From the NCBI GenBank assembly GCA_963753345.1, contig CAVWBU010000031.1, positions 53,972 through 117,971 of the forward strand: 64,000 nucleotides of DNA, written 5' to 3'. This document shows, one piece after another, positions 2,250-63,929 of this stretch. The first letter of the stretch is position 1; each line of letters opens with the position of its first letter. Source of the DNA: an uncultured Fibrobacterota bacterium (GTDB lineage: Bacteria > Fibrobacterota > Chitinivibrionia > Chitinivibrionales > FEN-1185). Under the pieces are notes generated by a model. It did no database searches, was not told the DNA's origin, and was given only the letters and a program-made list of their open reading frames with translations. Both the position numbers and the translations under genes were made by a program.

Positions 2250-2250
2250 C

Positions 2251-17767: not shown

Positions 17768-17925
17768 GGGCGTTCCCCTCCCCCTCGACTCCGCTCGGGG
17801 TCGGGTCGGTCTCCCTCCGGGCTCGGCCATTCGGCCTCGTTGCCGCCTGCCACAAGGGCCCTACGGGCCGTGGTCATGCGGCAATTCGCTTTGGCTCACT
17901 CTCCGGTCCACCTAACTCTGGGCAG
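17768..17925 (+). repeat. Structured repeat family A, copy 1
   Basis: GGGCGTTCCCC...GGGTCGG..CCCTCCGG...CCTAACTCTGGGCAG. Confidence 0.85.
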
Positions 17926-17990
17926 AGGAACATTGCCTAATTGTCAATAACTGCTGCGCAAACACAAATGAAGTTGTCTTGTTTTTTCAT

Positions 17991-18229
17991 GCGCCATCAG
18001 CGCCGACCCTGAGGCCATGGCGCTAACCCGCGCGACAGGAGGGAGGGTTATTTGGCCGCTCGTGCTGTTCGAGCCCGGCATCTATTGACGAATGGGTTTG
18101 TCCTGCCGGGTGAGTTCACGAGCGGCCCTTAGGCCCGAAGACAAGCCGGAGCTGGAGGCGCGGCGTTCTTTGCCTACTTTCTGTCGCTGCAGACAGAAAG
18201 TAGGGCGTCGTGCGGGGCCGCAACCCCGC
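17991..18229 (+). repeat. Structured intergenic element D
   Basis: Nested inverted repeats GGCCGCTCGTG/CACGAGCGGCC, CCCGGCA/TGCCGGG, CCTACTTTCTGTC/GACAGAAAGTAGG, GCGGGG/CCCCGC. Confidence 0.7.
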
Positions 18230-18285
18230 TATAAGAAATGTACCCTTGTTCGGTCATTAGTTCGCAGTAAGAAAAAGAGCACGTA

Positions 18286-18930
18286 ATGATTCATGTTCCC
18301 ATTAAGCAACTCTCAAAAAACCACGCCCCCGCCGTTGCCCTGCTCCATCAACAGGGCATTACCACCGGCTTTCTCTCCAGTTTAGGATCTCGGTTCCTAT
18401 CTGCATTATATTGCACCATCGCAAATTCACCCTGGTCAACGGTATTCACGGCCGTGCCGGAAGGCACAGATAAGCCGGTAGGATTTATTGCCGCGAGCAT
18501 CGACACGGGCCGCATGTACCGGGACGTTCTGTTGCGAAGGGGCTTGCGCTTTGCATGGCTGCTTGCGCCACAAATAATTCGGCCGGTTGCGGTAAAAAAC
18601 ATGCTTGAGACGGTTTTATACCCTGTCTTTCATGCAAAGGACGCCGAGCGAAAGGCGGATGTCTTGTCGCAAGCGTCAAGTGCCGGCGGCGTGCGCGCCG
18701 AACTCCTTGCGATTGCGGTTGACAAAGAGTGGCAGGGAAGGGGAGTAGGCAGGCTTCTGGTGAATGAGATGGAGGGGTATTTTAGAGAAAGCGGGGTTGA
18801 ACGGTACAAGGTGGTCACTTCGGCGCAGGACGAGACAGCCAACGCTTTTTACCGGGCGCTGGGGTTTTGCTTGGAAAAAACGTTTGTTCATCACAGGAGA
18901 GAAATGTGCCAATACATAAAGACGGTTTGA
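18286..18930 (+). CDS. GNAT family N-acetyltransferase
   Basis: LLAIAVDKEWQGRGVGRLL acetyl-CoA motif; ANAFYRALGF. Confidence 0.9.
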   Translation: MIHVPIKQLSKNHAPAVALLHQQGITTGFLSSLGSRFLSALYCTIANSPWSTVFTAVPEGTDKPVGFIAASIDTGRMYRDVLLRRGLRFAWLLAPQIIRPVAVKNMLETVLYPVFHAKDAERKADVLSQASSAGGVRAELLAIAVDKEWQGRGVGRLLVNEMEGYFRESGVERYKVVTSAQDETANAFYRALGFCLEKTFVHHRREMCQYIKTV

Positions 18931-19562
18931 CGCTTCTGCAGAGGGCGGCAAAGCGGCTGTTCGACATTGTGTTTGCCGGCCTTGGCATGGTTTTTCTGGC
19001 GCCGGTGCTCTTTGCAATGGCGGTGTATGTCAAATTTACGTCGCCGGGCCCGGTGTTCTTCCGGCAGAAGCGCGTGGGAAGGAACGGGAAGCTGTTTTCT
19101 GTTGTAAAGTTCCGCACCATGTATGTCGGCAGCGAGGCGGGCGGCTTTGTGACCGCGGAATTCGACGACCGCATCACGCCTGCGGGCAGGGTTTTGCGGC
19201 AGTACAAGCTCGACGAGCTCCCGCAGTTGTGGAACGTATTCTTCGGCGTAATGTCCTTTGTGGGCCCGCGGCCGGACGTGCCGGGGTATGCGGACAAACT
19301 TGAAGGCGACGGCAGGAAAATCCTATCGCTCCGTCCCGGCATCACGGGCCCGGCATCGCTTTACTTCCGCGACGAGGAGCAGCAGCTCGCATCAAGCAAG
19401 GACCCGCACCGCTACAACGACACGGTCCTGTGGCCCAAGAAAGTCGAGCTGAACCTGGAATACCTCGAGCACTGGAGTTTGTGGAAGGATATCGGCTATA
19501 TTGTTGTTACGCTGGTTCCGGAGTTTGATTCCATGTTTAATCTTGTCAAGAGGGAAATTTGA
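18906..19562 (+). CDS. Bacterial sugar transferase (monotopic phosphoglycosyl transferase, PglC-like)
   Basis: KRLFDI, FRQKRVG, KFRTM, LDELPQLWNV, SFVGPRP, RPGITG. Confidence 0.92.
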   Translation: MPIHKDGLTLLQRAAKRLFDIVFAGLGMVFLAPVLFAMAVYVKFTSPGPVFFRQKRVGRNGKLFSVVKFRTMYVGSEAGGFVTAEFDDRITPAGRVLRQYKLDELPQLWNVFFGVMSFVGPRPDVPGYADKLEGDGRKILSLRPGITGPASLYFRDEEQQLASSKDPHRYNDTVLWPKKVELNLEYLEHWSLWKDIGYIVVTLVPEFDSMFNLVKREI

Positions 19563-19581
19563 AAAATAATAAAATGAATCT

Positions 19582-19766
19582 GGGCGTTTCCCTCCCCCTC
19601 GACTTCGCTCGGGGTCGGGTCGGCCGTCCTTCCGGTCCACCCCTTCGGGTGCTTCCAAGGGTCGTCGGCCTTCGGCCTCGGGCCGCCACGGCCCTATGGC
19701 CCACAGGGCCGGGTCCGGGCGGCATCCCGCTTGGCGGGACCTCCAGTCCTGCCTAACGCGCAGCAG
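19582..19766 (+). repeat. Structured repeat family A, copy 2
   Basis: GGGCGTTTCCC...GGCCGCCACGGCCCTATGGCCCACAGGGCCGGGTCCGGGCGGCA...CCTAACGCG. Confidence 0.9.
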
Positions 19767-19840
19767 ATGAATTGTATTCGGTCAATTATATTTTCCTGCG
19801 CCAATCGGTGACTAGGCAAATCAATCATGCTTTCCTTTTT

Positions 19841-19896
19841 AACCATTCAACGTATCAACTATTCAACTCTTTCTTTCAACTTCTCAACCTCTCAAC
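19841..19896 (+). repeat. Degenerate octamer array (NNNTCAAC)n
   Basis: cattcaac gtatcaac tattcaac ... ttctcaac ctctcaac. Confidence 0.8.
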
Positions 19897-20031
19897 TGCT
19901 CTTCGTGGGTGCCCCCGCACAGGTGTTTGGTTCAGCAACCGCACCATCAAGGGGGACACCCTGGAGGGGGTAGCGCAGGACACCGCAGGCCAAAGGCCGA
20001 GGAGGCCGGAGCGAGGGGGAAACTTCCCCCC
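19894..20031 (+). repeat. Structured repeat family B (B1 type)
   Basis: GGGTGCCCCC...GGGGGACACCC-TGGAGGGGGTAGCGCAGGAC...GAGGGGGAAACTTCCCCCC. Confidence 0.85.
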
Positions 20032-20071
20032 GTTAAAGCATTTTAACTAATCTTTAATAAAGATCAACATC

Positions 20072-21205
20072 ATGAACCAAACATCGAAGCGCCTCTATCT
20101 TTCCCCTCCCCACATGGGCGGAAAAGAAATCGAATTTGTCAACGACGCCTTTGCGTCAAACTGGATCGCGCCCATAGGGCCGCAGGTCGACGCGTTTGAA
20201 AAGGAGTTCTGCGATGTGACCGGCGCGCGGCACGCGGCCGCGGTGAGCTCGGGCACTGCCGCGCTCCACCTTGCCATGATCCTTGCGGGCGTCAAGACGG
20301 GCGACGAGGTGCTGTGCTCGACGTTTACTTTTGCGGGAAGCGCATTTCCGATAACGTATCTGGGCGCAACGCCGGTGTTTGTCGACGCGGAGGAACAATC
20401 GTGGAACATGGACCCGCAACTTTTGGAGAAGGCTGTTTTGGACAGGAAGAAAAAAGGAAAAAGAGTAAAGGCCGCCATTGTGGTGCATTTGTACGGCCAG
20501 AGCGCGGACCTCGATCCCATTTTGGAAATATGCCGCCGGCATGATATTGCGCTCATCGAAGACGCGGCAGAGTCGCTCGGCGCAACGTATAAGGGGAAAA
20601 GCACGGGAACCATGGGCCGTATCGGCATATTTTCCTTTAACGGCAACAAGATCGTCACCACATCCGGCGGCGGCATGCTCGTATCGCCGGAAAAAGACCT
20701 GGTTGACAAGGCGCGCTTTCTGGCCACGCAGGCGCGCGACAGCGCGCCGCATTACGAGCATTCGCAGGTCGGCTACAATTACCGGCTGAGCAACGTGTGC
20801 GCGGCAATCGGCAGGGGACAGCTCGCTGTTTTACAGAAGAGAATAGAGCGCAAGAGGGAAATCTTCGCTCGCTACCAAAGCAGTCTTGCCCCGATGCCGG
20901 GATTTACGTTCATGCCCGAGGCCGTCTGGGGCGTTTCCAACCGGTGGCTCGCGTGCCTCACCATAGACCAGAAAAAAGCGGGCATCACTTCCGAGGACGC
21001 GAGGCTCACGCTTGAAAAGGAAAACATCGAGAGCCGGCCGTTGTGGAAACCCATGCATTTGCAGCCCGTGTTTGCAAAGGCTCCCGCATATGTCAATGGC
21101 GTGTCGGAGCGGCTGTTTGCGAACGGGCTGTGTTTGCCTTCCGGTACGGCGATGAGTGATGAGGATATTGAGAGAATGATTGCAATTGTAAAGAGTGCGA
21201 AATAA
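20072..21205 (+). CDS. Nucleotide-sugar aminotransferase, PglE/EpsN-like (DegT family)
   Basis: LYLSPPHMGG, SNWIAP, SSGTAALH, IEDAAESLG, SFNGNKIVTTSGGG, ESRPLWKPMHLQP. Confidence 0.93.
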   Translation: MNQTSKRLYLSPPHMGGKEIEFVNDAFASNWIAPIGPQVDAFEKEFCDVTGARHAAAVSSGTAALHLAMILAGVKTGDEVLCSTFTFAGSAFPITYLGATPVFVDAEEQSWNMDPQLLEKAVLDRKKKGKRVKAAIVVHLYGQSADLDPILEICRRHDIALIEDAAESLGATYKGKSTGTMGRIGIFSFNGNKIVTTSGGGMLVSPEKDLVDKARFLATQARDSAPHYEHSQVGYNYRLSNVCAAIGRGQLAVLQKRIERKREIFARYQSSLAPMPGFTFMPEAVWGVSNRWLACLTIDQKKAGITSEDARLTLEKENIESRPLWKPMHLQPVFAKAPAYVNGVSERLFANGLCLPSGTAMSDEDIERMIAIVKSAK

Positions 21206-21253
21206 ATAGATAAAAAATCTGGTGGGGGCACCGCGAAATTAAAGCAGAAATCT

Positions 21254-21412
21254 GGGCGTTTCCCTCGCCTTCGCAGGCGCTCAGGCTCGGGTCGGTTCTC
21301 CTTCCGGTTTCGGCCTTTGGCCTCTGGCCGCCTCGGCCCTATGGCCCACAGGGCCGGGTCCGGGCGGCACCGCGTTCCAACGCGGCCTCCAGTCGCCCCT
21401 AACGCGCGGCAG
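21254..21412 (+). repeat. Structured repeat family A, copy 3
   Basis: Same core; hairpin variant CCGCGTT-CC-AACGCGG. Confidence 0.9.
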
Positions 21413-21822
21413 AAGAAATCTTGCTCAGTTGCATGACAAGTTCGCATCTGACTGGCGCCAATCGGTAATCCGGAGCAAGCACGTCCCTGCCTCTGTCGGC
21501 GTGCGACTGTTTACCTGTTCAAGAAAACTGGGTAGTTTTTTGCCACTAGGCTCTTCTCGGTGCCCCCGCCAACGCGAGGCAACTTTCTTGCAGATCAACT
21601 TTCTGGCAGGCATACCGCACGAGCGGCGTATGGGTGCGGATCAGCCGGCGCCTCCGGATAATGTAATATTCGCAATTGTCTAAGGCAGGCGTTCCTTAAT
21701 TCCTGATTTTACTAATGAGACAACCTCAACTCCCCCCATAGATGCTCTCTTATATTAACCTGTGCAGATTCTATTTTAGACAAGCAGACCCGAATATACA
21801 AATAGAGACCTAAAACATAATT

Positions 21823-23706
21823 ATGAAAGTCCCGTTTCCCAATCTTATCATCCGGTACCGGCTGGTGATCATCATTCTGATGCACGCGGCTTTTGCCGCC
21901 GCGGCATTGCTCATTGCGTTTCTGCTGCGGTTCGATTTCACGCTCGGCTGGAACAAGTACCCGCAGATGTTCTATCATTCCCTTCCCGTCAACATCGCGG
22001 TCTTTCTCATATTTTCCGGCATCTTCAACCTGTATCAGGGCATCTGGCGCTACGTGAGCGTGGACGATCTCGAAGACATCGTGAAGACCTCGGCCGTTTC
22101 GTCGCTTGTCTTCATGTGCGTCATTGTTTTCAGCGAACATTTCCACGGGTATCCGCGCTCGATTTACGTCATGAATTTCGTGCTCTTTATTCTTCTCAAC
22201 GGCGGCACCCGTTTCGCCATCCGTATCTTCCGCGAGACGTTTGTGCCGGAGAGCGAAATTGCGCGCAACGTTCTCATCGTGGGCGCGGGGACCGCGGGCA
22301 ACGAACTTGCCAAGACCCTCAAATCCGCAAAGAACAAGGAATATATCCCGGTGGGCTTCATCGACAAGGACAAATGCACGCACGGCCAGCGCCTGCAGGG
22401 CCTCAAGGTGCTCGGCGACCTTTCGTCCATGAAAAAGCACATCAAGAAATTCCGCGTCCACGAAGTATTCATCGCCATTCCCGAAGCCACGAACAAGCTG
22501 GTCGAGGAAATCATTGAGGCGTCAAAGATCCCCGAATGGGACGTGAAGTTCAAGATCGTGCCTTCCATGCTCGACATCATGAGCGGCAAGTTCCAGCTCA
22601 ACCAGATCCGCGACGTGTCGATCAACGACCTTCTTTCCCGTCCCAACATCACGCTCGACGACACGCATGTGCGCAGGCAGCTGGCGGCCAAGACCGTGCT
22701 GATCACGGGCGCGGGCGGGTCCATCGGCTCGGAACTGTCGTACCAGGTGGCGGCCTACCGGCCCTCGCGGCTCATTCTGCTTGACGCAGGGGAACAGAAC
22801 GCCTACAACGTCGACCAGGACCTCAAGAAGCGCCACCAGGACATCGTGATCCACACCGTGGTGGGCAACATGCTCGACACAGGGTTTATGGACCTTCTTA
22901 TGCGGCGCTACCAGATCGACTGCATCTACCATGCCGCGGCATACAAGCACGTGCACCTGATGGAGTGGAACCCGCTCGCGGCGCTCAAGAACAACGTGCT
23001 CGGCACTGCCATGCTGGCCTCGCTCGCGGAAAAGCACGGGGTGAAGCAGTTCGTGATGATTTCCACCGACAAGGCGGTGAACCCACGGGGCGTCATGGGC
23101 CTGTCCAAGAGGCTTGCGGAGCGCGTGGTGCTGGAGCGCCACAAGTCCGGCACGCTCTTTAATATCGTGCGGTTCGGCAACGTGCTCGGGTCGAGCGGCA
23201 GCGTGATCCCGCTGTTCCAGAAGCAGATCCGCGAGGGCGGGCCGGTCACGGTGACCAGCCCGGAAACGCGGCGCTTTTTCATGTCCATTCCCGAGGCGGT
23301 GCAGCTCGTGCTGCAGGCGTCGACCCTCAACGAATCGAACGCGATCTTCATGCTCGAAATGGGCGAGCCCATAAAGATCGTCGATCTTGCAAAGAACCTT
23401 ATCGAGCTGTCCGGCCTCAAGGTGGGCGAGGACATCGAGATCGTCTTTACGGGCATGAGGCCCGGGGAGAAGATCGAAGAGGAGCTCTTGACGGAGTCGG
23501 AAAACCTGGAGCGCACGCGGTTCGACAAGATCCGGCTCCAGCGCAACGGGAACTTCGACCCGGACCGCATCGAGCGGTTCGTGCACGACCTCAAGTCGAA
23601 CGTGGAGCTCGGCAACGTGAAGGCCGTGTACAACGACATGCGGGAGCTTATCCCGGAAATGGCCGGCCCCTCGTTCGAGGAGATGATGAGGAATATGTTT
23701 GCGTGA
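21823..23706 (+). CDS. Membrane-bound UDP-GlcNAc 4,6-dehydratase (PglF/CapD/WbpM family)
   Basis: N-terminal TMs; LITGAGGSIGSEL, HAAAYKHV, ISTDKAVNP, VRFGNVLGSSGSV. Confidence 0.95.
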   Translation: MKVPFPNLIIRYRLVIIILMHAAFAAAALLIAFLLRFDFTLGWNKYPQMFYHSLPVNIAVFLIFSGIFNLYQGIWRYVSVDDLEDIVKTSAVSSLVFMCVIVFSEHFHGYPRSIYVMNFVLFILLNGGTRFAIRIFRETFVPESEIARNVLIVGAGTAGNELAKTLKSAKNKEYIPVGFIDKDKCTHGQRLQGLKVLGDLSSMKKHIKKFRVHEVFIAIPEATNKLVEEIIEASKIPEWDVKFKIVPSMLDIMSGKFQLNQIRDVSINDLLSRPNITLDDTHVRRQLAAKTVLITGAGGSIGSELSYQVAAYRPSRLILLDAGEQNAYNVDQDLKKRHQDIVIHTVVGNMLDTGFMDLLMRRYQIDCIYHAAAYKHVHLMEWNPLAALKNNVLGTAMLASLAEKHGVKQFVMISTDKAVNPRGVMGLSKRLAERVVLERHKSGTLFNIVRFGNVLGSSGSVIPLFQKQIREGGPVTVTSPETRRFFMSIPEAVQLVLQASTLNESNAIFMLEMGEPIKIVDLAKNLIELSGLKVGEDIEIVFTGMRPGEKIEEELLTESENLERTRFDKIRLQRNGNFDPDRIERFVHDLKSNVELGNVKAVYNDMRELIPEMAGPSFEEMMRNMFA

Positions 23707-23731
23707 GAAAAAGATAATCAAATAGAAAAAA

Positions 23732-23793
23732 GTTGAGAAGTTGAGAGTTTAAGTTGAGAGCCGATGACGAAGCGTCGAGGAGTTGAGAGGTTG
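23732..23793 (-). repeat. Octamer array (GTTGAGAR)n upstream of four-helix-bundle gene
   Basis: gttgagaa gttgagag ... gttgagag ... gtcgagga gttgagag. Confidence 0.85.
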
Positions 23794-23802
23794 CCGGGTC
23801 GC

Positions 23803-24165
23803 ATGGACGATCTTCGCTTCCATTTGAAAAACTTACGGGTGTGGCAGAAAGGATCGCTGGCGGTCAGGATTTACAAAGTCACCTCGTCATTCCCTGAGGA
23901 TGAGAAATTCGGCATCGTTTCCCAAATGCGGCGCGCCGCAGTGTCAAAAGCTTCGAACATCGCGGAAGGCGCTTCACGATTGAGCAAGAAAGATCAAGCG
24001 CATTTTTCTCAGATTGCGTATGGCTCGCTTACAGAGCTGCTCTGTCAGGTCAGCATTGCAAACGAACTATCGTTTATTTCAAACGAAGGCTACTCGGATC
24101 TTCGTGTCGAAATCGAAGAAGTTTCCCGGATGCTCAACGCACTGCGAAAATCCCAGATGGGCTAG
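23803..24165 (+). CDS. Four helix bundle protein (23S rRNA IVP / Avd-like family)
   Basis: LRVWQK, IYKVTSSFPEDEKFGIVSQMRRAAVS..SNIAEG, IAYGSLTE. Confidence 0.92.
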   Translation: MDDLRFHLKNLRVWQKGSLAVRIYKVTSSFPEDEKFGIVSQMRRAAVSKASNIAEGASRLSKKDQAHFSQIAYGSLTELLCQVSIANELSFISNEGYSDLRVEIEEVSRMLNALRKSQMG

Positions 24166-24231
24166 TTTCAACTGCAGGATTGACGACGAGAAGGGACAGC
24201 TTGTAACCATCTAAATGGATTGATTTTTGTC

Positions 24232-24335
24232 TTCTCAACTTCTCAGCTTCTCAACCATTCAACTCTCAGCTTTAACGATTGAAGTGGTATCATGTTTTCT
24301 CTTCTCAACTTCTCAACATCCTCAACGTTCTCAAC
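24232..24335 (+). repeat. Octamer array (TTCTCAAC)n downstream of four-helix-bundle gene
   Basis: ttctcaac ttctcagc ttctcaac cattcaac ... ttctcaac ttctcaac atcctcaac gttctcaac. Confidence 0.88.
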
Positions 24336-24341
24336 TATTCC

Positions 24342-25125
24342 ATGAATCCTTTCTCTCCTCGCCAAACTACTCCCTGTTTTTCTGTATCCGGTCGGCATGA
24401 GCGGGGCGCTCGGCCTCGCGGCGGCCGTTGTCGCCCTCAAGAAAAAAACAAGGGCCGCGGCAGTGCTGGCCTTTTGCGCCGTAGGAGTGCTGTGGTTTTT
24501 TTCAACCCCGTTCGTTTCATGGGCGCTTGCGAGGAACCTGGAAGCCAGGTTCGATCCGTCGCCCGTGCTGCCCCGGTGCGGGGCCATCGTGCTTCTGGGC
24601 GGGTGCACCAAGCCCGCGGTCCCTCCGCGGAAGTACGTGGAGGTGAGTTGCGCCGGCGACAGGATAATCCACGCCGCAAGGCTTTACAAACAGGGATACG
24701 CGCCCGTCATCATCGCCACGGGCGGCAAGATCGCGTATGTCTACGATTTTCCCGGGTCCGAGGGCGCCTGCATGGCGAGCATCCTTGCAAACGACTGCGG
24801 CGTGGATTCGTCGGCCATTATCGTGGAGGACAGGGCCAAAGTCACCCGCGATCACGCGCCCAACGTCGAGGCCATTCTGCTTGCGCGCGGGATGTCCAAG
24901 GAGATAATCCTGGTGACGAGCGCCATGCACATGTTCCGTTCCGTCAAGGTGTTCCGCAAGCGCGGCTACGTGGTGCACCCGTCGCCCGCCGATTTCACGG
25001 CCGATGCCAGGTTCCAGTGGAACGCGGTCGCCCTGTTCCCGCGGGGCGAGTGTCTGTTCGGCTCGACCGCCGCGCTGCATGAATATTATGGGATTATTGC
25101 GTATAAGATTTTAGGGTGGATTTAG
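24342..25125 (+). CDS. YdcF/ElyC family (DUF218) protein, probable frameshift near 24352
   Basis: AIVLLGG, IIATGG, SEG, LVTSAMHMFRS, LHEYYG. Confidence 0.88.
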
Positions 25126-25129
25126 AATT

Positions 25130-25288
25130 GGGCGTTCCCCTCCCCCTCGACTTCGCTCGGGGTCGGGTCGGTTCTCCTTCCGGTCTCGGCCTCCGGCCTC
25201 GGGCCGCCACGGCCCTATGGCCCAGAGGGCCGGGTCCGGGCGGCATCCCGCTCTGGCGGGACCTCCAGTCGCCCCTAACGTGCGGCAG
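25130..25288 (+). repeat. Structured repeat family A, copy 4
   Basis: Near-identical to copies 2 and 5. Confidence 0.92.
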
Positions 25289-25372
25289 AGGAGTTCTTAT
25301 CAGTCAACTAGCTCTAAATGCGCCACTTCGTATCCAAGGAAACTGATCGCGGTCTTTTAGCTTCTCAACTCC

Positions 25373-26733: not shown

Positions 26734-26751
26734 CGAAGTCCCTGGAAAAAG

Positions 26752-26892
26752 GTTGAAAGTTGGAAGTTGAAAGTTAAAAGTATAACGACCCTTGCATTTT
26801 TCTCCGTGTCCTCCATGCCCCTATGGTGATTCTTCTTTGATTCCTCTTGCTTTCAACTTTCAACATGAAACTTCCAACTTTAAACTTCCAAC
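26752..26892. repeat. Inverted heptamer arrays (GTTGAAA)n ... (TTTCAAC)n around a short spacer
   Basis: gttgaaa gttggaa gttgaaa gttaaaa ... tttcaac tttcaac atgaaac ttccaac tttaaac ttccaac. Confidence 0.85.
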
Positions 26893-28974: not shown

Positions 28975-29005
28975 AATAAATTTGTAAAGAAATAAAACAA
29001 ATCTT

Positions 29006-29226
29006 GGGCGCCCCGCTGCTTCGCAGCGGCGGCCCTCGTTCACGCTTCGCGCCCTGCGGGCCGCCTTCGGCGGTGGTCTCCGCGCCTCCGGCGCTCCGGC
29101 TCCAGGCTCGGGGCGGCACAAGGCAAGAGACACAATAATGAAGCGCAAAGCGCTATTACTATACCTTGGGGAACGAAGTGACAATGCGCTCCAGCGCACC
29201 TTCCAGTCCTGCCTGGCGCGGGGCGG
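29006..29226 (+). repeat. Structured repeat family A, copy 11 (divergent, with insertion)
   Basis: GGGCGCCCCGCTGC-TTC-GCAGCGG ... ATGCGCTCCAGCGCACCTTCCAGTCCTGCCTGGCGCG. Confidence 0.8.
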
Positions 29227-29291
29227 AAGGGGAAACTTAAAGCCCCCCGTGTCTTTGCCCCAAACGGCAACGCCGGGAAATATAGATACAA

Positions 29292-29308
29292 ATGCAAGTC
29301 AGTTGCAA
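29292..29308. promoter_or_regulatory. Candidate Fur/Zur-family operator
   Basis: Palindrome TGCAA-GTCAG-TTGCA in AT-rich DNA upstream of the fur-znuACB operon. Confidence 0.5.
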
Positions 29309-29550: not shown

Positions 29551-29624
29551 AAGGCAATGTTTCCCGGCCGCGCCTTTACAAAAGGGGGAACGCCCAATTT
29601 ATTATTTAGAGAAAGAAATTGAAA

Positions 29625-34087: not shown

Positions 34088-34233
34088 GGGCGTTCCCCGG
34101 CCTTTGGCCGGGTCGGTTCTCCTTCCGGTCTCGGCCTCCGGCCTCGGGCCGCCACGGCCCTATGGCCCACAGGGCCGGGTCCGGGCGGCATCCCGCTTTG
34201 GCGGGACCTTCAGTCGCCCCTAACGCGCGGCAG
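34088..34233 (+). repeat. Structured repeat family A, copy 5
   Basis: Core identical to copies 2 and 4; first hairpin CCCGGCC-TTT-GGCCGGG. Confidence 0.92.
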
Positions 34234-35617: not shown

Positions 35618-35761
35618 CTGCCGCGCGCCAGGCAGGACTGGAGGCCGCGCCAGAGTGCGGTGCCGCCCGGACCCGGCCCTGTGGGCCATAGGGCCGAGGC
35701 GGCCCGAGGCCGGAGGCCGAGACCGGAAGGACGGCCGCCGACGCGAAGCGGCGGGGCGCCC
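35618..35761 (-). repeat. Structured repeat family A, copy 6
   Basis: Reverse strand GGGCGCCCC...CCTGGCGCGCGGCAG. Confidence 0.9.
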
Positions 35762-35882
35762 AAGCATTTACTTTCTTGACTTGATGAAGGCCGGGGAACG
35801 CCCAAGTATTTTTTATATCGACACAATATATTTTCCAATTACGCGGAAAGATTCCCTTTCCACGGCGCAAAGGACTCCTGTC

Positions 35883-38827: not shown

Positions 38828-38988
38828 CTGCCGCGCGTTAGGTGGACCGTAGTGGTCCCGCCATAGCGGGATTGCCGGCCGACCCCGGCCCGAAGGGCCC
38901 TAGGGGCGGACCGGCAACGAGGCGAATAGCCGAGCCCGGAGGGAGACCGACCCGAGCCTGAGTTGTAACGAGGGCGAGGGGAACGCCC
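38828..38988 (-). repeat. Structured repeat family A, copy 7
   Basis: Reverse strand GGGCGTTCCCC...CCTAACGCGCGGCAG. Confidence 0.88.
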
Positions 38989-43867: not shown

Positions 43868-44027
43868 GGGCGTTCCCCTCGCCTTCGTCAAGTCTCAGGC
43901 TCGGGTCGGCCCTCCCTCCGGTCTCGGCCTTCGGCCTCGGGCCGCCACGGCCCTATGGCCCACAGGGCCGGGTCCGGGCGGCATCGTGCTCCAGCACGAC
44001 CTCTGGTCCGGCCTAACGCGCGGGCAG
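43868..44027 (+). repeat. Structured repeat family A, copy 8
   Basis: Hairpin variant TCGTGCT-CC-AGCACGA. Confidence 0.92.
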
Positions 44028-44310: not shown

Positions 44311-44381
44311 AGAGCATTTCGTATTTGTGAATTTTCCAGCGAAGCGAGGGAAACGCCCAGCCTTAAACGTTTATTACTCTT

Positions 44382-50263: not shown

Positions 50264-50441
50264 GGGCGTTTCCCCGGCTAAGTAGAGGCGTACGGCCATG
50301 CGCCTCTACATAGCGGGTCGGCCCTCCTTCCGGTCTCGGCCATTCGGCCTCGGGCCGCCTCGGCCCGATGGCCGCGGTAGCGGCGGGTCCGGGCGGCAAT
50401 CCGCCTCTGGCGCGACCCTCCGGTCCGCCTAACGCGCGGCA
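50264..50441 (+). repeat. Structured repeat family A, copy 9
   Basis: Expanded first hairpin GTAGAGGCG...CGCCTCTAC; ends CCTAACGCGCGGCA. Confidence 0.85.
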
Positions 50442-50551
50442 ACGTGAATATCTTATTAGTCAATGTTATATATTGCGCCAAATGGAATTCTCGGAAATGC
50501 AGAAATTGGTTACTTCTAATTAGGTAAATATGATGAATTGTGAATCTCCGA

Positions 50552-50722
50552 TGCCAAGCGCCAGGCAGGACTGGAGGCCGTGCAAGAGCGCGGTGTCGCC
50601 CGCGGACCCGGCCCTGCGGGCCATAGGGCCGTGGCGGCCCGAGGCCGGAGGCCGACGACCCTTGGAAGCACCCGAAGGGGTGGACCGGAAGGACGGCCGC
50701 CGCCGTAATCGGCGGGGCGCCC
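50552..50722 (-). repeat. Structured repeat family A, copy 10
   Basis: Reverse strand GGGCGCCCCGCCG-ATTA-CGGCGG...CCTGGCGC. Confidence 0.88.
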
Positions 50723-57808: not shown

Positions 57809-57953
57809 GGGCGCCCCGCCGCTTCGCGGCGGCGGCCCTCCTTCCAGGCTCGGCCTATCGGCCTCGTTGCCGCCTGCCACGAAGGCCCTGCGGGCAGTGG
57901 TCAGGCGGCAATGCGCTCCAGCGCACCTTTCAGTCCTGCCTGGCGCGGGGCAG
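57809..57953 (+). repeat. Structured repeat family A, copy 12
   Basis: GGGCGCCCCGCCGC-TTC-GCGGCGG...CCTGGCGCGGGGCAG. Confidence 0.88.
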
Positions 57954-57987
57954 CGGAGCAACGCCCGCCCCTGAAGTCGCGGGTGAA

Positions 57988-58032
57988 TTCTCCCCCTTGA
58001 AAAGGGGGAGGTGCCGAAGGCGGAGGGGGATT
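57988..58032 (+). repeat. Hairpin module C
   Basis: CTCCCCCTT-GAA-AAGGGGGAG-GTGCC-GAA-GGCGG-AGGGGG. Confidence 0.85.
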
Positions 58033-58047
58033 CACCTTAGAGAAGGC

Positions 58048-58194
58048 GTTGCGGAAACGTGACGCCCGCAATGCGCAAGCGTTGCGCTTCGCGCACGTTT
58101 CCGCTGGAAGGGGTGTGGGTGCAGATCACCTCCCGCCGTTTTCCGGCGGGAGGAAGCTGCACCCCAGGGGAAACCGCGAAGCGGTTTCCCCACC
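58048..58194 (+). repeat. Structured repeat family B (B2 type)
   Basis: GCGGAAACGTG...CACGTTTCCGC-TGGAAGGGGTGTG...GGGGAAACCGCGAAGCGGTTTCCCCACC. Confidence 0.85.
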
Positions 58195-58326
58195 AGATTT
58201 CTTGGTGTTAGATCTATTTCTTTGATATATTATTGATGGATGGGGGAGTACCAATCATTTTATTCCTTCATTCATTAAACGATTAAAAGAAGCATTGTTG
58301 CCAATTAACAAAAAGGGGGATTGCAC

Positions 58327-61137
58327 ATGACAAGGAAACTGCTTGCTGTAGGCGTCGTGCTCGTAACCGCCGCATGGTGTTTCGCCCAAACCTACACAGG
58401 GGAGGCGAGCAACAGGCTTGACATCAACATGGGCATCACGCCCTGGAAATTCACAAAAGGCGATCCCATAAACGCCCAGACGGTCGGTTTGAGCGACGGC
58501 GGTTGGACGGACGTCGGCATACCGCATTGTGTCAATGAAAGCGAAGCCTACACCAACATGATAAGCGGCGGCGGCAATCAGTACGGCGGCACCATGTGGT
58601 ACCGCAAACACTTCACGCTTGATGCGGCGTATTCGGCGCGCAAGGTGTTCGTCGAGTTCGAAGGCGCGAACACCGGTGCCGCCGTGTACATCAACGGCAC
58701 GTTTATTCCCGGAAACAGTGCGATTAACCCTCTTTGCACGCACGTGAACGGCTTTATTCCCTTCGTTGTCGACGTCACGCCGAATGTGCAATTCGGCGGC
58801 GCCGACAACGTTCTGGCCGTCAAGGTGAACAACAACGGCGGCACGTATGTTGAGGCGATCTCCGGGGCGTTCCGCTTCGGCCAGGCCGACGGCGGACTCG
58901 TCCGCAAGGTGTGGATGCATATCACCGACAAGGTGTATGTGCCGGCCAACGTATACTCTGTTGTCAAGAACTGGGGGACGTGCGTGGGCACGGTCTCCGC
59001 CACGGACGCGTCCGCGACCGTCCGCATAATGACCAACGTGCAGAACGACAACGCGACGGCCCAGACCGTTACGGTCACCACAAAGGTCGTCGACGCGCAG
59101 GACAACGTCGTGTTGACTCAGCAAAGTTCACCTCAGAGCATTGCCGCGAATTCGTCGTATGTGTTCGACCAGTCGGGCACCATCACCAATCCCAAGCTGT
59201 GGTATCCGGCGAACAGCCCGTACGGCACGCCGTACATGCACAAGGTGTATCACATCGTGCAGGTCAACGGCGCGACCGTCGACGTATTCACGTCGCCGCT
59301 CGGCATTTGCAAAGTAACCTGGGACCAGAATTACCCCTATTTCAACGGGCATATGCATTACGTGTGGGGGGCGTCGGGCCGGTACAATTATCCGGCGCTC
59401 GCTTCCGGCGTTCCGGACGAGCTCCTGTGGAAGGATGCCAAGCTCGTCGCGGACTGCGGAGGGAGGGAATGGCGTCCCGGGCATTCCACCTGCACGCCCG
59501 AGTTTGTTGATGCATGCGACGCCTTCGGTGTTCTGGTCGACCAGCCGAGCGGCGACGGTGAGGGCGCGTTCCAGACCGGCAACATCACCCAGAACATCAT
59601 TACCCTTAAAATGGAGTTGCATCGCGACATGATCGTCCGCGACCGCAACCACCCCAGCATTCTCATGTGGGAGGTCACGAATGCCGGCATTGTCGACAGC
59701 CTGTCGCGGAACCTCAAGGCGCTTGCGCATCTATGGGACCCCATCATGCTCCGGGCCCAGTCCGACAGGTCGTATCTCGACGGCTGCAAGGCCGGCATCT
59801 CCGACGTCATCGAGTGTTCTTCGGCCGGCTGCGAAGCCGGGCAGAAATTGAATTCCGCGTGCACGAATTTCCCGGCCTTCGGCGCCGAGGCGTGGGACGC
59901 CGGGCCCGCCCGCGCGTCCAGGTTTGCCTGGGACTACGAACTCCAGTTCGCAGGCTCCTACCTGATAAACTGGAAAAATGCCGTGGCGGCGAAGGCCTTC
60001 GGCCTTGCGCACTGGTATCTGGCAGAGGCGCCGGGCGAGGTCGGTCCGTTCCTCGGAGACACCCGCACGGCGCGATCGTTCGGGTCGTCGATCATGGACG
60101 CGAACCGCCTTCCCAAGCTGCTTTACAAAATCTACGGCGTCGCGTGGATCCCCTTCTCGCAAAGGCCCGGCGTCGTTCTTGCGCACCACTGGAACCGCAG
60201 CGGCACCGTGCGCGTGAACGCATTCAGCAACTGTCCCAAGGTCCGCCTGCTGCTCAACGGGACCAATCTGGGAGATAAAGTACCGCTTGGGCCTTCGGGA
60301 ACCTCGGGAGACGACAGGTCTCAGACGTCGGAGACGCTGCCCTGCGAGTGCTGGTGGGACAACGTGACCTGGGCGTCGGGAACGCTGCTTGCCGAAGGAC
60401 TCGATTCAGCCGGCAACGTGGTGTGTACCGATCAGAAAGTCACCGCAGGCAACCCGGATCATATCGACCTGACCCTCGACCCCAGGCTTGTCAAGCCGGA
60501 CGGGTCGGTGTTCAACATCACGGCCAACGGCACGGACTGCGCGACGCTGCTTGCAAAAGTCGTTGACGCAAGCGACAACCTGTGCCCGACAGCGACCAAC
60601 CCCGTCACGTTTTCGGTGTCCGGCCCCTGCCAGTATCGCGGCGGCACCGATGCATTCGTAACGGACGGCCAGCCGGTCGGTTATCATTCGCCGCTCGATC
60701 CGGAGCTCTCGGCCGAAGGCGGCATGTGTCACATCGCGGTACGGTCGACCTTCACGGCGGGAGCGGTTACGGTAACGGCTGCATCTGCGGGCCTGAAAAG
60801 CGGCACGGCCTCATACACCGTTGTTCCCGTGTCCGCAGGACCCTCTTCTGTGGCCATCCCGGGAGGGGCCGCCGAATTGCGCATCGCTGCGCTGCACGGG
60901 TTCGACATCAACGGAACAACAATAAAGTATTATCTGTTGCGACCCGCTTCGGTTTCGTTTGTCATATTGTCCGCGTCCGGCAGGGTGTTGTACCAACAGA
61001 AACCGACGGCACGGGGCGTCGGTTGGACCGTTGCCAGGATTCCGGGCGGTTCGGCAATGGGCGCGGGCGTGTACTTCGTGCGTCTTGCCGTTGACGGAAA
61101 AGAAAATGCGGCAAAGCGGTTTTTTGTGCTTCGGTAA
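58327..61137 (+). CDS. Secreted GH2-like protein, paralog of 54974-57790
   Basis: Same motif order and length; RDRNHPSILMW; C-terminal GAGVYFVRL. Confidence 0.88.
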   Translation: MTRKLLAVGVVLVTAAWCFAQTYTGEASNRLDINMGITPWKFTKGDPINAQTVGLSDGGWTDVGIPHCVNESEAYTNMISGGGNQYGGTMWYRKHFTLDAAYSARKVFVEFEGANTGAAVYINGTFIPGNSAINPLCTHVNGFIPFVVDVTPNVQFGGADNVLAVKVNNNGGTYVEAISGAFRFGQADGGLVRKVWMHITDKVYVPANVYSVVKNWGTCVGTVSATDASATVRIMTNVQNDNATAQTVTVTTKVVDAQDNVVLTQQSSPQSIAANSSYVFDQSGTITNPKLWYPANSPYGTPYMHKVYHIVQVNGATVDVFTSPLGICKVTWDQNYPYFNGHMHYVWGASGRYNYPALASGVPDELLWKDAKLVADCGGREWRPGHSTCTPEFVDACDAFGVLVDQPSGDGEGAFQTGNITQNIITLKMELHRDMIVRDRNHPSILMWEVTNAGIVDSLSRNLKALAHLWDPIMLRAQSDRSYLDGCKAGISDVIECSSAGCEAGQKLNSACTNFPAFGAEAWDAGPARASRFAWDYELQFAGSYLINWKNAVAAKAFGLAHWYLAEAPGEVGPFLGDTRTARSFGSSIMDANRLPKLLYKIYGVAWIPFSQRPGVVLAHHWNRSGTVRVNAFSNCPKVRLLLNGTNLGDKVPLGPSGTSGDDRSQTSETLPCECWWDNVTWASGTLLAEGLDSAGNVVCTDQKVTAGNPDHIDLTLDPRLVKPDGSVFNITANGTDCATLLAKVVDASDNLCPTATNPVTFSVSGPCQYRGGTDAFVTDGQPVGYHSPLDPELSAEGGMCHIAVRSTFTAGAVTVTAASAGLKSGTASYTVVPVSAGPSSVAIPGGAAELRIAALHGFDINGTTIKYYLLRPASVSFVILSASGRVLYQQKPTARGVGWTVARIPGGSAMGAGVYFVRLAVDGKENAAKRFFVLR

Positions 61138-62672: not shown

Positions 62673-62707
62673 GGTTATGTCCCGTACATGCATTTGGGAA
62701 GGTACTG

Positions 62708-62788
62708 CCGTTCGCCCTAAGCAAAGTCGAAGGGGAACGGCCAGTTCCAGCATAACCGTTCATGCTTCGACAAGCTCAGCACGAACGG
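62708..62788. repeat. Inverted REP-like pair
   Basis: CCGTTCGCCCTAAGCAAAGTCGAAGGG ... TGCTTCGACAAGCTCAGCACGAACGG. Confidence 0.75.
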
Positions 62789-62829
62789 GCTAAGGCAGCT
62801 TGCTTGCAGGACACCATAACAGGAGGAAC

Positions 62830-63720
62830 ATGAAGAAACTGCTTGTTACCGGCGCATCCGGTTTTCTCGGGTACAACGTCTGTCTCGCGGCGCGCGGATC
62901 GTGTGACGTGTTCGGCACCTTTAATTCGCACCCTGTCGCAATTGACAAGGTGAAAACCCTGCGGGTCGATTGCGCCGACCACGACCCGCTTTCCATCGTG
63001 TTCCGCGACATCCGGCCCGACGCGGTGATCCACTGCGCCGCGTACCCGGACCCCAACCTGTGCCAGCAGAATCCGGCCGGGTCGTACCGGAACAATGTGC
63101 AGGCGTCAATCGCGATCGCCTCGCTGTGCAACCAGCAGGGAATCCCCTGCGTGTTCACGTCGAGCGACCTGGTATTCGCGGGCGACAAGCCGCCGTACGA
63201 CGAACAGAGCCCTGTCGGCCCGGTCAACATCTACGGCGAACACAAGGCGGCTGCAGAAAAAGGCATGGCCGAAGCGTATCCGGACGTCACCATCTGCCGC
63301 ATGCCGCTCATGTTCGGCGATGCGCCCGCGCCCGCAAAGAGCATTATCCAGCCCATCATTTCCGCGATTGTCGAAAAGCGCGAACTCAAGCTCTTTACCG
63401 ATGAGTACCGGACGCCCGTGAGCGGTTCCACGGCCGCGCAGGGCCTGCTTCTGGCGCTCGGAATGTCTTCCGGCCTTCTGCACCTTGGCGGAAGGGAAAG
63501 GATTTCCAGATACGACTTCGGACTCCTTGTCGCAAAGGCGCTCGGCAAAGACGCGTCAGCGATCGTTCCCGTTCTGCAGAAAGATCAGACCTTTCCCGCG
63601 CCGCGCGCAAAAGACGTGTCGCTGGTGAGTGAAAAGGCGTTTGATTTAGGATATGATCCGAAGACGCTGGAGGAACAAGTGAGAGAATTGGAATGCGTGA
63701 AGAGCGGCTCGAAGAAGTAG
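62830..63720 (+). CDS. RfbD/RmlD-like SDR (dTDP-4-dehydrorhamnose reductase family)
   Basis: AGGAGG RBS; LVTGASGFLG, HCAA, SSDLVF.G, YGEHK, FTDEYRTP. Confidence 0.88.
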   Translation: MKKLLVTGASGFLGYNVCLAARGSCDVFGTFNSHPVAIDKVKTLRVDCADHDPLSIVFRDIRPDAVIHCAAYPDPNLCQQNPAGSYRNNVQASIAIASLCNQQGIPCVFTSSDLVFAGDKPPYDEQSPVGPVNIYGEHKAAAEKGMAEAYPDVTICRMPLMFGDAPAPAKSIIQPIISAIVEKRELKLFTDEYRTPVSGSTAAQGLLLALGMSSGLLHLGGRERISRYDFGLLVAKALGKDASAIVPVLQKDQTFPAPRAKDVSLVSEKAFDLGYDPKTLEEQVRELECVKSGSKK

Positions 63721-63787
63721 ACAAGAGAGAAGAAAAGAGTTTTTGTAGGGGGAAGTACAGCCTGTCTCAAAACTCAAGAGAAGATCT

Positions 63788-63929
63788 GGGCGCCCCGCCG
63801 AAGACGGCGGCGGTTCTCCTTCCGGGCTCGGCTATTCGCCTCGTTGCCGGACCGCCCGTAGTCCCCTTCGGGGAGGGTCGGCCGGCAATGCGCTCTGGCG
63901 CACCCTTCAGTCCAACCTGGCGCGTGGCA
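63788..63929 (+). repeat. Structured repeat family A, copy 13
   Basis: GGGCGCCCCGCCG-AAGA-CGGCGG...CCTGGCGCGTGGCA. Confidence 0.85.

Follow-up and report, generated by a model that had tools for sequence, protein, structure and literature searches.

The 64,000-nt stretch of DNA from an uncultured Fibrobacterota bacterium analysed here (the window) contains thirteen copies of a multi-stem non-coding element, termed Family A. They raise the question of what kind of element this is and whether it is maintained as a sequence or as a fold. A few well-studied phyla are known to carry interspersed folding repeats (REP, BIME, REPIN, bcr1, Correia), most of which fold as a simple hairpin.

Copies in the window

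A sequence-only reading had listed thirteen copies with their strands, and all 13 were located at those places. A covariance model (R1) built from only three of them recovers 13/13 at E <= 2e-4 (Table 1); four extra weak R1 matches (E 0.036-0.55) are left out of the counts. The cores are 142-220 nt long. Eleven of the 13 lie wholly between genes, so that the description of all copies as intergenic holds for these; copies 34088 and 35619 reach some 100 nt into the 5' ends of called ORFs, probably because the start codons were over-extended. The pattern of ends reported for the closing helix, GGGCGTT...CCTAAC or GGGCGCC...CCTGGC, is true of eight and five copies, respectively, and the variable penultimate hairpin, the exchanged first hairpin and the conserved junction motifs are each present as described. 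The copy at 29006 retains the ends and the penultimate hairpin, with the middle swapped for other hairpins and an AT-rich stretch that lies inside the long hairpin.

Table 1. Positions of Family A cores, tails and associated modules in the window
Feature	Position	Strand	Score or basis
Core, GTT-type ends, 157 nt	17768..17924	+	covariance model 83.7 bits, E 6e-18
Tails comparable to that of copy 19582, after other cores	17925-17964, 21412-21465, 25288-25330, 34233-34272	+	
Core, GTT-type, extra hairpin inserted 3' of the conserved C/T loop, 184 nt	19582..19765	+	132.5 bits
3' tail of copy 19582: purine-rich start, GTCAAT-like motif, TGCGCCA	19766..19808	+	tail conservation in 351 copies
Octamer (TCAACNNN) tandem tract, ~75 nt 3' of core 19582	19839..19899	+	
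Core, GTT-type, canonical 158 nt, one of three R1 seeds	21254..21411	+	179.6 bits
Core, GTT-type, canonical 158 nt, R1 seed and helix-numbering reference	25130..25287	+	171.4 bits
Similar octamer tract after core 25130	25365-25396		
Aberrant core, GCC-type, 220 nt	29006..29225	+	25.7 bits, E 2e-4
Solo inverted 5'-terminus motif, closing the ~590-nt composite begun at 29006	29586..29595	-	
Core, GTT-type, short first hairpin, 145 nt	34088..34232	+	covariance model
Similar octamer tract after core 34088	34311-34423		
Comparable tails after other cores	35574-35618, 38784-38828	-	
Core, GCC-type ends but GTT-type tail, 143 nt	35619..35761	-	covariance model
Solo 5' terminus of a second, GTT-type copy, ~20 nt, just upstream of core 35619	35794..35803	-	
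Core, GTT-type, 160 nt	38829..38988	-	covariance model
Core, GTT-type, canonical 158 nt, R1 seed	43868..44025	+	covariance model
Solo inverted 5'-terminus motif, closing the ~490-nt composite begun at 43868	44349..44358	-	
Core, GTT-type, long first hairpin, 178 nt; left partner of inverted doublet	50264..50441	+	covariance model
Doublet spacer, 110 nt: tails of two inverted cores, tail to tail	50442..50551	.	24/29 genome doublets have 107-115-nt spacers
Core, GCC-type, extra hairpin, 171 nt; right partner of heterotypic doublet	50552..50722	-	covariance model
Core, GCC-type, 144 nt	57809..57952	+	covariance model
Core, GCC-type, 142 nt	63788..63929	+	covariance model

Fold, covariation and linkage

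The core is predicted to fold into a five-way junction, modelled with 42 pairs in eight helical segments. These comprise the closing helix P1 (5 bp), the hypervariable first hairpin P2, a 3-bp mini-hairpin with a conserved C/T-rich loop, the short hairpin P3, the long bulged hairpin P4 and the penultimate hairpin P5. MAFFT alignments misaligned the subfamilies, and the pairing statistics come instead from model-based alignments. In these alignments, which are fitted to the structure of the model and hence biased towards it, 93.9% of 4946 stem cells are paired in 128 copies from this genome, and 94.2% of 1860 in 47 copies from other species. For the 128 copies, 500 shuffles leave 75.2% of cells paired (sd 0.4) and slid partners 37-45%; over both copy sets the values are about 75% and 32-46%. 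Changes on both sides are seen in 36 of the 42 pairs (128 copies). Between closest relatives (47 disjoint nearest-neighbour pairs), two-sided stem differences number 80 vs 9.3 expected, and 69 of them lead from one Watson-Crick pair to another.

Statistical linkage tracks base pairing rather than distance along the sequence. Pairs of P4 and P5 have a Cramer V of 0.80-1.00, and the two strands of P1, which are separated by about 140 nt, one of 0.79-0.81; for a P1 strand and the enclosed P4 or P5 modules the value is 0.00-0.20. The modules between linked partners are shuffled (0.36 or less). Genome-wide, the ends match in 341 of the 348 copies with both ends located (234 TT/AA, 107 CC/GG, 7 mismatched). 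P2 varies in both sequence and length, with 244 distinct versions among 334 copies, and the 115 long P2 hairpins have 41 single mismatches vs 1732 pairs. The C/T loop motif is retained in 247/348 cores and the CCTCC junction motif in 225/348. Between closest copies the differences amount to 7.2% in stems and 12.7% in unpaired columns, a hint of constraint on resident copies, that is, of a host-level role.

The earlier suggestion that constraint acts on the fold rather than on the sequence is supported by significant covariation, both in this genome and in other species. Selection is not the sole process that gives such a pattern: it could also arise if the two ends were recognised together as terminal inverted repeats, if whole hairpins were swapped, or through hairpin-templated correction.

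Abundance and genomic placement

Family A has 403 nhmmer matches on 49 of the 55 contigs of the 4.5-Mb genome, corresponding to about 400 copies. The matched DNA amounts to ~56 kb, or 1.3% of the genome with tails and partner modules excluded, and the median core length is 155 nt. This copy number, together with a core modelled as a five-way junction, agrees with the initial description of a high-copy element far more complex than a REP. By the gene calls, which come from a crude home-made caller and make the genome 76% coding, 371 of the 403 matches fall between genes, 28 run into a called 5' end and the other 4 are within a gene or at its 3' end. The units are located in AT-rich DNA at gene boundaries. 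Convergent-gene gaps account for 15% of the gaps but for 30% of the copies (117 of 388), and divergent gaps show no depletion (15% of gaps, 17.5% of copies). In tandem gaps the two orientations relative to the genes number 130 and 73 (64:36). The 5' side of the core lies a median of 49.5 nt from the stop codon that it faces (n=190). There is also a modest replication-strand bias (105 vs 155), which is confounded by gene orientation.

Unit architecture

One unit consists of a purine-rich leader of ~12 nt, a core of 140-185 nt and a tail of ~45-55 nt, with conservation reaching ~55 nt 3' of the core (351 copies). Units occur alone, as tail-to-tail inverted doublets with fixed spacing, or in polar composites with the order core, tail, octamer tract and second GC-rich module. 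Of 388 copies, 116 have a same-strand octamer tract that begins a median of 89 nt downstream, and one has it upstream. Other composites are closed by short inverted copies of the 5' terminus. The 403 copies form 29 tail-to-tail and no head-to-head doublets; the spacers are conserved, 24 of the 29 being 107-115 nt long, and 24 of the 29 doublets are heterotypic. Singlets predominate (345 vs 58 copies in doublets), and doublets have no advantage in conservation (median 71.25 vs 70.5 bits, p 0.63). One copy has an internal deletion between two similar junction motifs.

The tail was also considered as a pre-existing target and rejected as such. A strict regular expression finds 61 tails with an upstream core and 49 without. 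The latter, by reading of the listing, are mostly chance-like matches in coding DNA; five real tails among them follow degenerate or internally deleted cores, and none of these lacks core sequence upstream.

Distribution and turnover

High copy number is found in four of the five other species of the genus, and the fifth (99% complete) has no copies. The two other genera of the family also have none. A strict pattern searched among 185,579 species genomes has matches in only three named MAGs, and it has none in viral contigs. Orthologous gaps differ between species in the presence and orientation of the core, and composites are present or absent whole, as units. The sequence-only reading had proposed to look for empty orthologous sites; in four clean cases, a near relative (flanks 86-94% identical) holds a composite of 300-410 nt and this genome has none or only a remnant. 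Median pairwise identity of copies is 70% and the nearest-neighbour median is 90%. There is no sign of recent activity, as 0 of the 8128 pairs among 128 copies reach 97% identity.

It had been suggested to look for an enzyme gene (HUH/RAYT, RT) adjoining some of the copies, and no candidate was found. PF01797 (RAYT/IS200), PF07282 (TnpB) and PF00078 (reverse transcriptase) have no matches in this 94%-complete genome; as a positive control, the same PF01797 search is positive in 6 of 14 genomes. Y1 transposases occur in three of the five congeners, where R1 finds one core in the surrounding 32 kb, ~2.2 kb away, so the Y1 genes of the relatives are neither adjoined nor flanked by cores. The only multi-copy IS found is IS5-like (three copies, 930 bp), with ends unrelated to Family A, and the few DDE and rve matches are unrelated to it as well. 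Cores do not bracket any gene family consistently, nor do they have a common gene between them; the sole apparent case of an autonomous element bracketed by cores is one region assembled twice. Among inverted terminus pairs there is no peak beyond 1 kb. Several window copies appear by eye to have their 5' flank repeated after the core, but both sides follow a generic purine-rich consensus. A permutation test (329 copies) shows no target-site duplication: the flank matches a copy's own tail at a mean of 5.50 of 10 positions vs 5.56 for permuted partners.

The folding molecule

Family A pairing is Watson-Crick only. G.T/T.G and A.C/C.A cells number 84 vs 93 in this genome (4946 cells), 39 vs 26 in copies from other species (1860 cells) and 15 vs 11 in the long P2 hairpins (n=115). 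In 67 copies that could be oriented by flanking genes, wobbles number 25 for the transcribed and 22 for the opposite strand. Since G.T and A.C are equally rare and the orientation bias is only 64:36, constraint at the DNA level fits better than constraint on RNA, and the data point to DNA as the folding molecule. A search of the window with 4227 Rfam models, self-cleaving ribozymes included, has no match at gathering score, and positions 17000-36000 (7 copies) have no match at E <= 1, in keeping with the first impression that this is not a named RNA family. Inspection by eye shows no hammerhead-like motifs. An intrinsic terminator was considered and dropped, with 21 terminator-like sites vs 24.3 expected in 17000-36900. 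A sigma-54 or sigma-70 promoter in the tail was likewise rejected; its spacing is inconsistent by eye, and a scan finds no fixed-place signal in the cores.

Competing explanations

The copies could be cis-acting RNA elements of neighbouring mRNAs that protect 3' ends, insulate cistrons or hold ribosomes, with spread being secondary. The reverse strand, which is more often transcribed, presents the mini-hairpin loop and the last junction as Shine-Dalgarno-like purine motifs. The enrichment in convergent gaps, the 130:73 orientation and the short distance to the faced stop codon would fit such a role, as would the greater conservation of stems than of unpaired columns, the retention of the C/T loop and CCTCC motifs, and a P2 that varies like the variable arms of functional RNAs. 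The passages on bcr1, the closest analogue, in one paper also report it as transcribed (PMC3184786). However, we consider this explanation unlikely: the orientation bias is far below what a strand-specific RNA signal would need, G.U is not in excess over A.C on either the model strand or the transcribed strand, copies are not scarce in divergent gaps, terminator-like sites in 17000-36900 are no more frequent than expected and Rfam has no match. Independent small-RNA or ribozyme genes, each copy being its own transcription unit, would account for a multi-helix junction with conserved unpaired nucleotides and a conserved A/T-rich flank. This is very improbable, given that the ~400 copies have no conserved promoter- or terminator-like signal at a fixed distance, strand asymmetry is absent, both orientations occur beside genes and none of the Rfam models matches.

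The copies could also be left over from old bursts in which a few MITE-like masters spread, and be under no constraint today. Their pairing would then derive from perfect-palindrome masters, gene-conversion swaps of hairpins and intrastrand templated repair (quasi-palindrome correction). The copies are indeed old by their pairwise and nearest-neighbour identities, remnants and internally deleted copies are present, and many of the two-sided differences are whole-hairpin switches among few states (two at most P1 and P4 pairs). Watson-Crick-only, strand-symmetric pairing is itself a prediction of templated correction. Even so, this origin appears doubtful. The P1 strands match in nearly all copies around freely shuffled modules, and over 140 nt short-range templated repair is insufficient; neutral conversion tracts would be expected to decouple the most distant sites first. 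P2 has too many versions, with too few mismatches in its long hairpins, to descend from few masters. The fold is also kept equally well in other species.

Interpretation

Family A is best read as a new, unusually elaborate repeat of the BIME/REPIN/bcr1 kind, larger than the known ones. With a probability of about 0.5, it is the core module of an interspersed mosaic repeat that is non-autonomous and confined to one lineage, a much enlarged analogue of REP/BIME/REPIN and bcr1. Folded single-stranded DNA or an extruded cruciform may be recognised by a trans-acting factor while units are copied or kept, and P1 may double as a terminal inverted repeat. Only copies with pairing arms would then propagate or persist. 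We infer DNA as the molecule, this mode of spread and the existence of any trans factor. Transcribed copies probably have a secondary role as bulky structures in 3' untranslated regions.

It is possible, with a lower likelihood, that Family A represents a new class of structure-dependent mobile DNA, or a genome-wide architectural or replication-linked signal adopted by the host. As mobile DNA, it would be a single-stranded five-way junction with one hairpin free to vary, and the enzyme copying it into DNA at gene boundaries would not be a Y1/HUH transposase, TnpB, a reverse transcriptase or a DDE transposase with matching ends. A genus with ~400 copies per genome beside a copy-free congener would then be a natural system for finding that enzyme.

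The repeat of this uncultured Fibrobacterota genus has a junction fold that equals a small ribozyme in complexity, and this fold is kept across species by compensatory change while its modules are reshuffled. Read as DNA, the fold implies a new recognition machinery; read as RNA, few structured RNA motifs known in bacteria would be more abundant per genome. The copy-free sister species and the presence or absence of units between relatives make the mover, and the cost or benefit of the repeat, addressable by comparative and population metagenomics.

Comparison with known systems

In integron attC sites and IS200/IS605 ends one defined strand acts, and the recombinase is adjacent. Family A resembles them solely in the proposed logic, in which structure is conserved and a folded DNA strand is recognised; it shows no strand preference or adjacent enzyme and is dispersed over 49 contigs. 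attC itself was rejected as an identity, since the GTT/AAC end order is reversed relative to attC, five window copies lack GTT/AAC and the copies are dispersed in both orientations.

MITE-like repeats include Correia/NEMIS in Neisseria, RUP/BOX in Streptococcus and ERIC, of which BOX is modular. Like these, Family A is non-coding, intergenic and present or absent between relatives, falls into the 100-200 nt size class, has ends that form an inverted repeat and, like BOX, is modular. Unlike them, its terminal inverted repeat is just 5 bp (P1) plus a ~10-nt terminal motif, its fold is branched rather than one long hairpin, and it has neither a target duplication nor a parent IS with the same ends (the IS5-like element was compared).

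REP, BIME and REPIN elements are described, in the parts of two papers that concern them, as hundreds of GC-rich extragenic folding repeats biased to convergent-gene gaps, forming mosaics with other fixed motifs and inverted doublets with a fixed spacer (PMC3184786, PMC3116915). According to the same parts, a REP unit is a GC-rich imperfect palindrome of ~20-40 nt, moved by RAYT tyrosine transposases in Enterobacteria and Pseudomonas, and in REPINs the inverted doublets predominate and are better conserved than singlets (PMC3184786, PMC3116915). Family A is likewise GC-rich, extragenic, high-copy, folding, mosaic and biased to convergent gaps, and has inverted doublets with a fixed spacer (~110 nt). 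However, its core is a 140-185-nt five-way junction and not a 20-40-nt hairpin, it occurs mostly as singlets, and its doublets join two different subtypes and are no better conserved. Unlike RAYT-associated REPs, it resides in a genome without RAYT, and the Y1 genes of relatives are not core-flanked.

The bcr1 repeat, one of the Group A repeats in the Bacillus cereus group, is ~155 bp long and lineage-restricted, its distribution is not conserved between close relatives, and compensatory changes maintain its multi-stem fold, as outlined in the passages on it (PMC3184786, section 8). The same passages give it two independent stem-loops, flanking 5-bp direct repeats and transcription (PMC3184786). 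By description rather than by sequence, Family A matches bcr1 in size, lineage restriction, non-conserved positions and compensatory changes that keep the fold. No flanking duplication was detected for it. It differs from bcr1 as described in having five to six helices arranged around a junction, a conserved tail and a polar link to the octamer tract.

Copies, abundance and range

Family A is a ~150-nt multi-stem intergenic repeat. The 13 copies that the sequence-only reading had placed in the window are all present at their positions and strands, and this observation is confirmed. They range from 142 to 220 nt. Eight run from GGGCGTT to CCTAAC (GTT-type) and five from GGGCGCC to CCTGGC (GCC-type), as claimed. 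One copy, at 29006, is aberrant: it measures 220 nt and keeps its ends and penultimate hairpin, but its middle is replaced. Three canonical 158-nt copies, with a structure of 42 pairs derived by hand, served to build a covariance model (R1), which recovers all 13 (E ≤ 2e-4) and finds no convincing further copy in the window. The 5' terminal motif also occurs alone at three window sites. Rfam 15 matches nothing in the window at gathering score, and nothing at E ≤ 1 in the segment 17000-36000, where seven of the copies lie.

Searching the 4.52-Mb source genome with an HMM of the 13 copies yields 403 matches (E < 1e-3), spread over 49 of its 55 contigs and summing to 56 kb, and R1 matched all 150 candidates scored in the genome search. 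By our own crude gene caller (3057 genes, 76% coding), 371 of the 403 are intergenic, 28 run into an ORF at its called 5' end, probably because the caller set the start too far upstream, and four are within a gene or at the 3' end of one. The first part of the window (1-11000) has a G+C content of 37-43%, against 51-65% elsewhere in the window, and its ORFs score poorly under a genome-trained codon model. It is possibly a horizontally acquired block, and it contains no Family A copy.

Seven of the 41 genomes of the order, counting the source genome, have matches. Four of the five other species of the genus carry Family A (66-72 of 72 scored candidates matched in each), and two genomes of other families have one and three weak matches. 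No match came from the fifth congener (99% complete) or from either of the two other genera of the family. When one genome per species (185,579 species) was screened with a strict three-anchor pattern, 51 stretches matched, confined to three MAGs: Chitinivibrionales bacterium SMAG_U9540, uncultured Fibrobacterota MFD03044.bin.1.58 and Fibrobacteres bacterium fen_1185. The same pattern matched 113 metagenome stretches and no viral contigs. The portions available to us of the literature on Chitinivibrionales, and on interspersed or repetitive extragenic palindromic repeats of Fibrobacter, describe no such repeat.

Core, flanks and partner modules

The core, or folded part, is a five-way junction, numbered here on the copy at 25130. 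The 5-bp closing helix P1 (GCGTT/AACGC or GCGCC/GGCGC) is followed by a hypervariable first hairpin (P2), a 3-bp mini-hairpin whose 8-nt C/T-rich loop is conserved, a 4-bp hairpin (P3), a bulged 17-bp hairpin (P4) and a 6-bp hairpin (P5); a conserved C/T-rich last junction precedes the 3' strand of P1. Across 235 and 351 flanks examined, a conserved purine-rich leader of ~12 nt lies 5' of the core and, in most copies, a conserved tail of ~45-55 nt lies 3' of it. No recognisable tail was found without core sequence upstream. P2 has 244 distinct versions in 334 copies, with lengths of 17-113 nt. At least nine Watson-Crick pairs are present in 115 P2 hairpins, often 15-21 pairs of unrelated sequence, and these long hairpins have 41 single mismatches against 1732 pairs. 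A mini copy outside the window joins the conserved C/T loop motif straight to the last junction motif, and looks like a deletion between two similar direct motifs.

Family A is polar: its 5' side abuts a gene, and its 3' side is followed by 290-360 nt (medians) more of non-coding DNA. The genome has 250 tandem tracts of at least two units of the octamer TCAACNNN, 116 of them downstream of a core on the same strand (116 of 388 copies). These begin a median of 89 nt from the core (10th-90th percentile 77-137); a tract lies upstream in one copy and in the opposite orientation in three. Inverted tracts bracket some gaps, such as 26760-26890. Repeats bound by proteins seldom have a period of 8 nt. 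A second GC-rich module often follows the tract, and core, tail, tract and module together form a composite. Two inverted cores can also lie tail to tail as a doublet. There are 29 doublets, with spacers of 107-115 nt in 24 (full range 85-217), and no head-to-head pairs were found. In 24 of the 29 a GCC-type and a GTT-type core are joined via two different conserved tails. At the end of other composites lies a short copy of the 5' terminus in inverted orientation.

Module B is a second GC-rich multi-hairpin repeat (families D15, D18 and D20) whose end often lies 40-90 nt upstream of a start codon. A relative has it with Family A upstream and the source genome (contig C6) has it without Family A, so that it counts as an independent module. 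Module C, a third GC-rich repeat (D12, D16), follows three of the window cores, and two of its composites end in an inverted Family A 5' terminus. The non-coding DNA that separates the core at 17768 from the following gene contains a further repeat family, present at many places in three congeners with 76-93% identity. Two neighbouring ORFs of 938 aa each, likely tandem paralogues, are also separated by a core and module C; their identity is 71-76% over the reported stretches (D9, D14, D19).

Coordinates of repeat-associated features in the window and, with contig prefix, elsewhere in the source genome
Feature	Coordinates	Strand	Remark
Solo 5' terminal motif	29586-29595	-	motif match
Solo 5' terminal motif	35794-35803	-	motif match
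Solo 5' terminal motif	44349-44358	-	motif match
Octamer tracts (TCAACNNN)	19839-19899, 24251-24320, 25365-25396, 34311-34423, 47192-47207	+	tandem 8-nt unit
Octamer tract (TCAACNNN)	23729-23744	-	tandem 8-nt unit
Heterotypic doublet	50264-50722		window example
Module B	19900-20030	+	
Module B	35272-35427, 37234-37316, 38610-38742		
Module C	29350-29553, 44085-44313, 57987-58197		
Further repeat family	18050-18234		non-coding
938-aa ORFs	54974-57790, 58321-61137		adjacent
Mini copy	near C26:71261		outside window
31-nt hairpin	C26:231389-231419		outside window
IS5-like element, 930 bp	C18:84641-85048, C32:215672-216079, C49:51509-51916		outside window; three copies 99.9-100% identical; ~20-bp inverted ends unrelated to Family A

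Conservation of the fold

The sequence-only reading had proposed that a fold is kept rather than a sequence, and this inference is supported by covariation above chance in the source genome and in other species. The own-genome alignment (A5; 128 copies from the window and 20 further stretches) has standard pairs in 93.9% of 4946 stem cells, a figure biased towards the structure of R1, to which it was fitted, and one that counts copies, not events. Shuffled controls reach 75.2% (none of 500 shuffles equals the observed value) and slid partners 37-45%; two-sided changes occur at 36 of the 42 pairs. The alignment from other species' genomes (A6; 47 copies), fitted and counted in the same way, is 94.2% paired, against 74.9% when shuffled and 32-46% when slid, with 35 of 42 pairs changed on both sides.

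Because the alignments lean to the model and cells count copies, two further tests were added. Among 47 disjoint nearest-neighbour pairs (identity at least 85%, 1771 pair comparisons) there are 96 one-sided and 80 two-sided stem differences, where 9.3 two-sided ones are expected if positions change independently. Of the two-sided differences, 69 replace one Watson-Crick pair by another. Sites differ less in stems (7.2%) than in unpaired columns (12.7%). Linkage of variable sites (Cramer V) tracks pairing rather than distance. It reaches 0.79-0.81 for the two P1 strands, separated by 140 nt, and 0.80-1.00 for paired positions of P4 and P5. Values across modules are low (P1-P4 0.00-0.15, P1-P5 0.11-0.20), and the P4 base and its inner segments give 0.24-0.36. 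Modules are therefore reshuffled among copies while pairing partners stay matched. The matching of the two ends holds genome-wide (341 of 348 copies). Taken singly, copies have modest thermodynamic z-scores (-0.7 to -3.2), which their G+C content of 70-75% would lead one to expect, and the case for the fold rests on covariation, not stability.

Turnover and search for a mover

Orthologous sites could be compared in a syntenic stretch of four congeners, where the same gaps differ in copy presence and orientation; the congener without Family A has no copy there. Comparison of a near relative's contigs with the source genome (flanks 86-94% identical) gives four cases in which 300-410 nt of composite in the relative are missing in the source genome, in AT-rich surroundings too diverged for exact junctions. 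One of these sites retains the second module alone. At another, with a full composite in the relative, the source genome has a 31-nt hairpin that combines a GTT-type 5' terminus with an inverted GCC-type one; it may represent a footprint, a seed or a copy with an internal deletion. Family A copies are not young: pairwise identity among the 128 has a median of 70%, nearest-neighbour identity a median of 90%, and no pair reaches 97%.

An enzyme gene consistently beside the copies, one thing the sequence-only reading had suggested looking for, was not found. The 94%-complete source genome has no RAYT/IS200, TnpB or reverse transcriptase gene and few DDE genes, and the only multi-copy member of the latter is an IS5-like element with unrelated ends. 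No gene family bracketed by cores was found. Y1 transposases in three congeners are compact IS200-like units or single genes, without an adjoining core. No target duplication flanking Family A was detected. Doublets are not better conserved than singlets, and the repeats therefore depart from the REPIN model.

Folding molecule and alternative readings

A cis-acting RNA structure would be one way to account for the fold. Wobble pairs (G.T/T.G) are as rare as their mirror image (A.C/C.A) in A5 (84 and 93 of 4946 cells), and the counts are 39 and 26 of 1860 cells in A6 and 15 and 11 in the long P2 hairpins. In 67 aligned copies in tandem gaps, oriented by flanking genes, the transcribed strand carries 25 wobbles and the opposite strand 22; tandem gaps hold 130 copies antisense and 73 sense to genes. 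Copies are not depleted in divergent gaps (68 of 388, 17.5%, against 15% of all gaps), and terminator-like sites over 17000-36900 show no enrichment, with 21 observed where 24.3 are expected. The equally rare and strand-symmetric wobbles, the weak orientation bias, the undepleted divergent gaps and the lack of terminator enrichment speak against a strand-specific RNA fold. Other features would fit a role at 3' ends. Convergent gaps are enriched twofold (117 of 388 copies), the median distance from stop codon to the 5' side of the core is 49.5 nt where the core faces a stop, and the conserved loop (kept in 247 of 348 cores) and junction (225 of 348), read on the reverse strand, resemble Shine-Dalgarno purine motifs. 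A cis-acting RNA is unlikely, and that the copies are independent small-RNA genes is very improbable.

The copies may also be neutral relics, with pairing kept by hairpin swapping and templated correction. This account is unlikely to the same degree as the cis-acting RNA. We favour, with a probability of roughly one half, a lineage-restricted, non-autonomous mosaic repeat with a branched fold constrained at the DNA level.

Comparison with known systems

Family A merits follow-up because its fold is complex, one hairpin is hypervariable, its doublets are mostly heterotypic and no enzyme was found for it. It fails the tests that define the REP/BIME/REPIN systems and bcr1, differing in unit size, RAYT, doublet conservation and direct repeats. 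These systems are the closest in kind. The bcr1 repeat of the Bacillus cereus group is described as ~155 bp long, lineage-specific, mobile-like and kept by compensatory changes (PMC3184786, PMC3116915).
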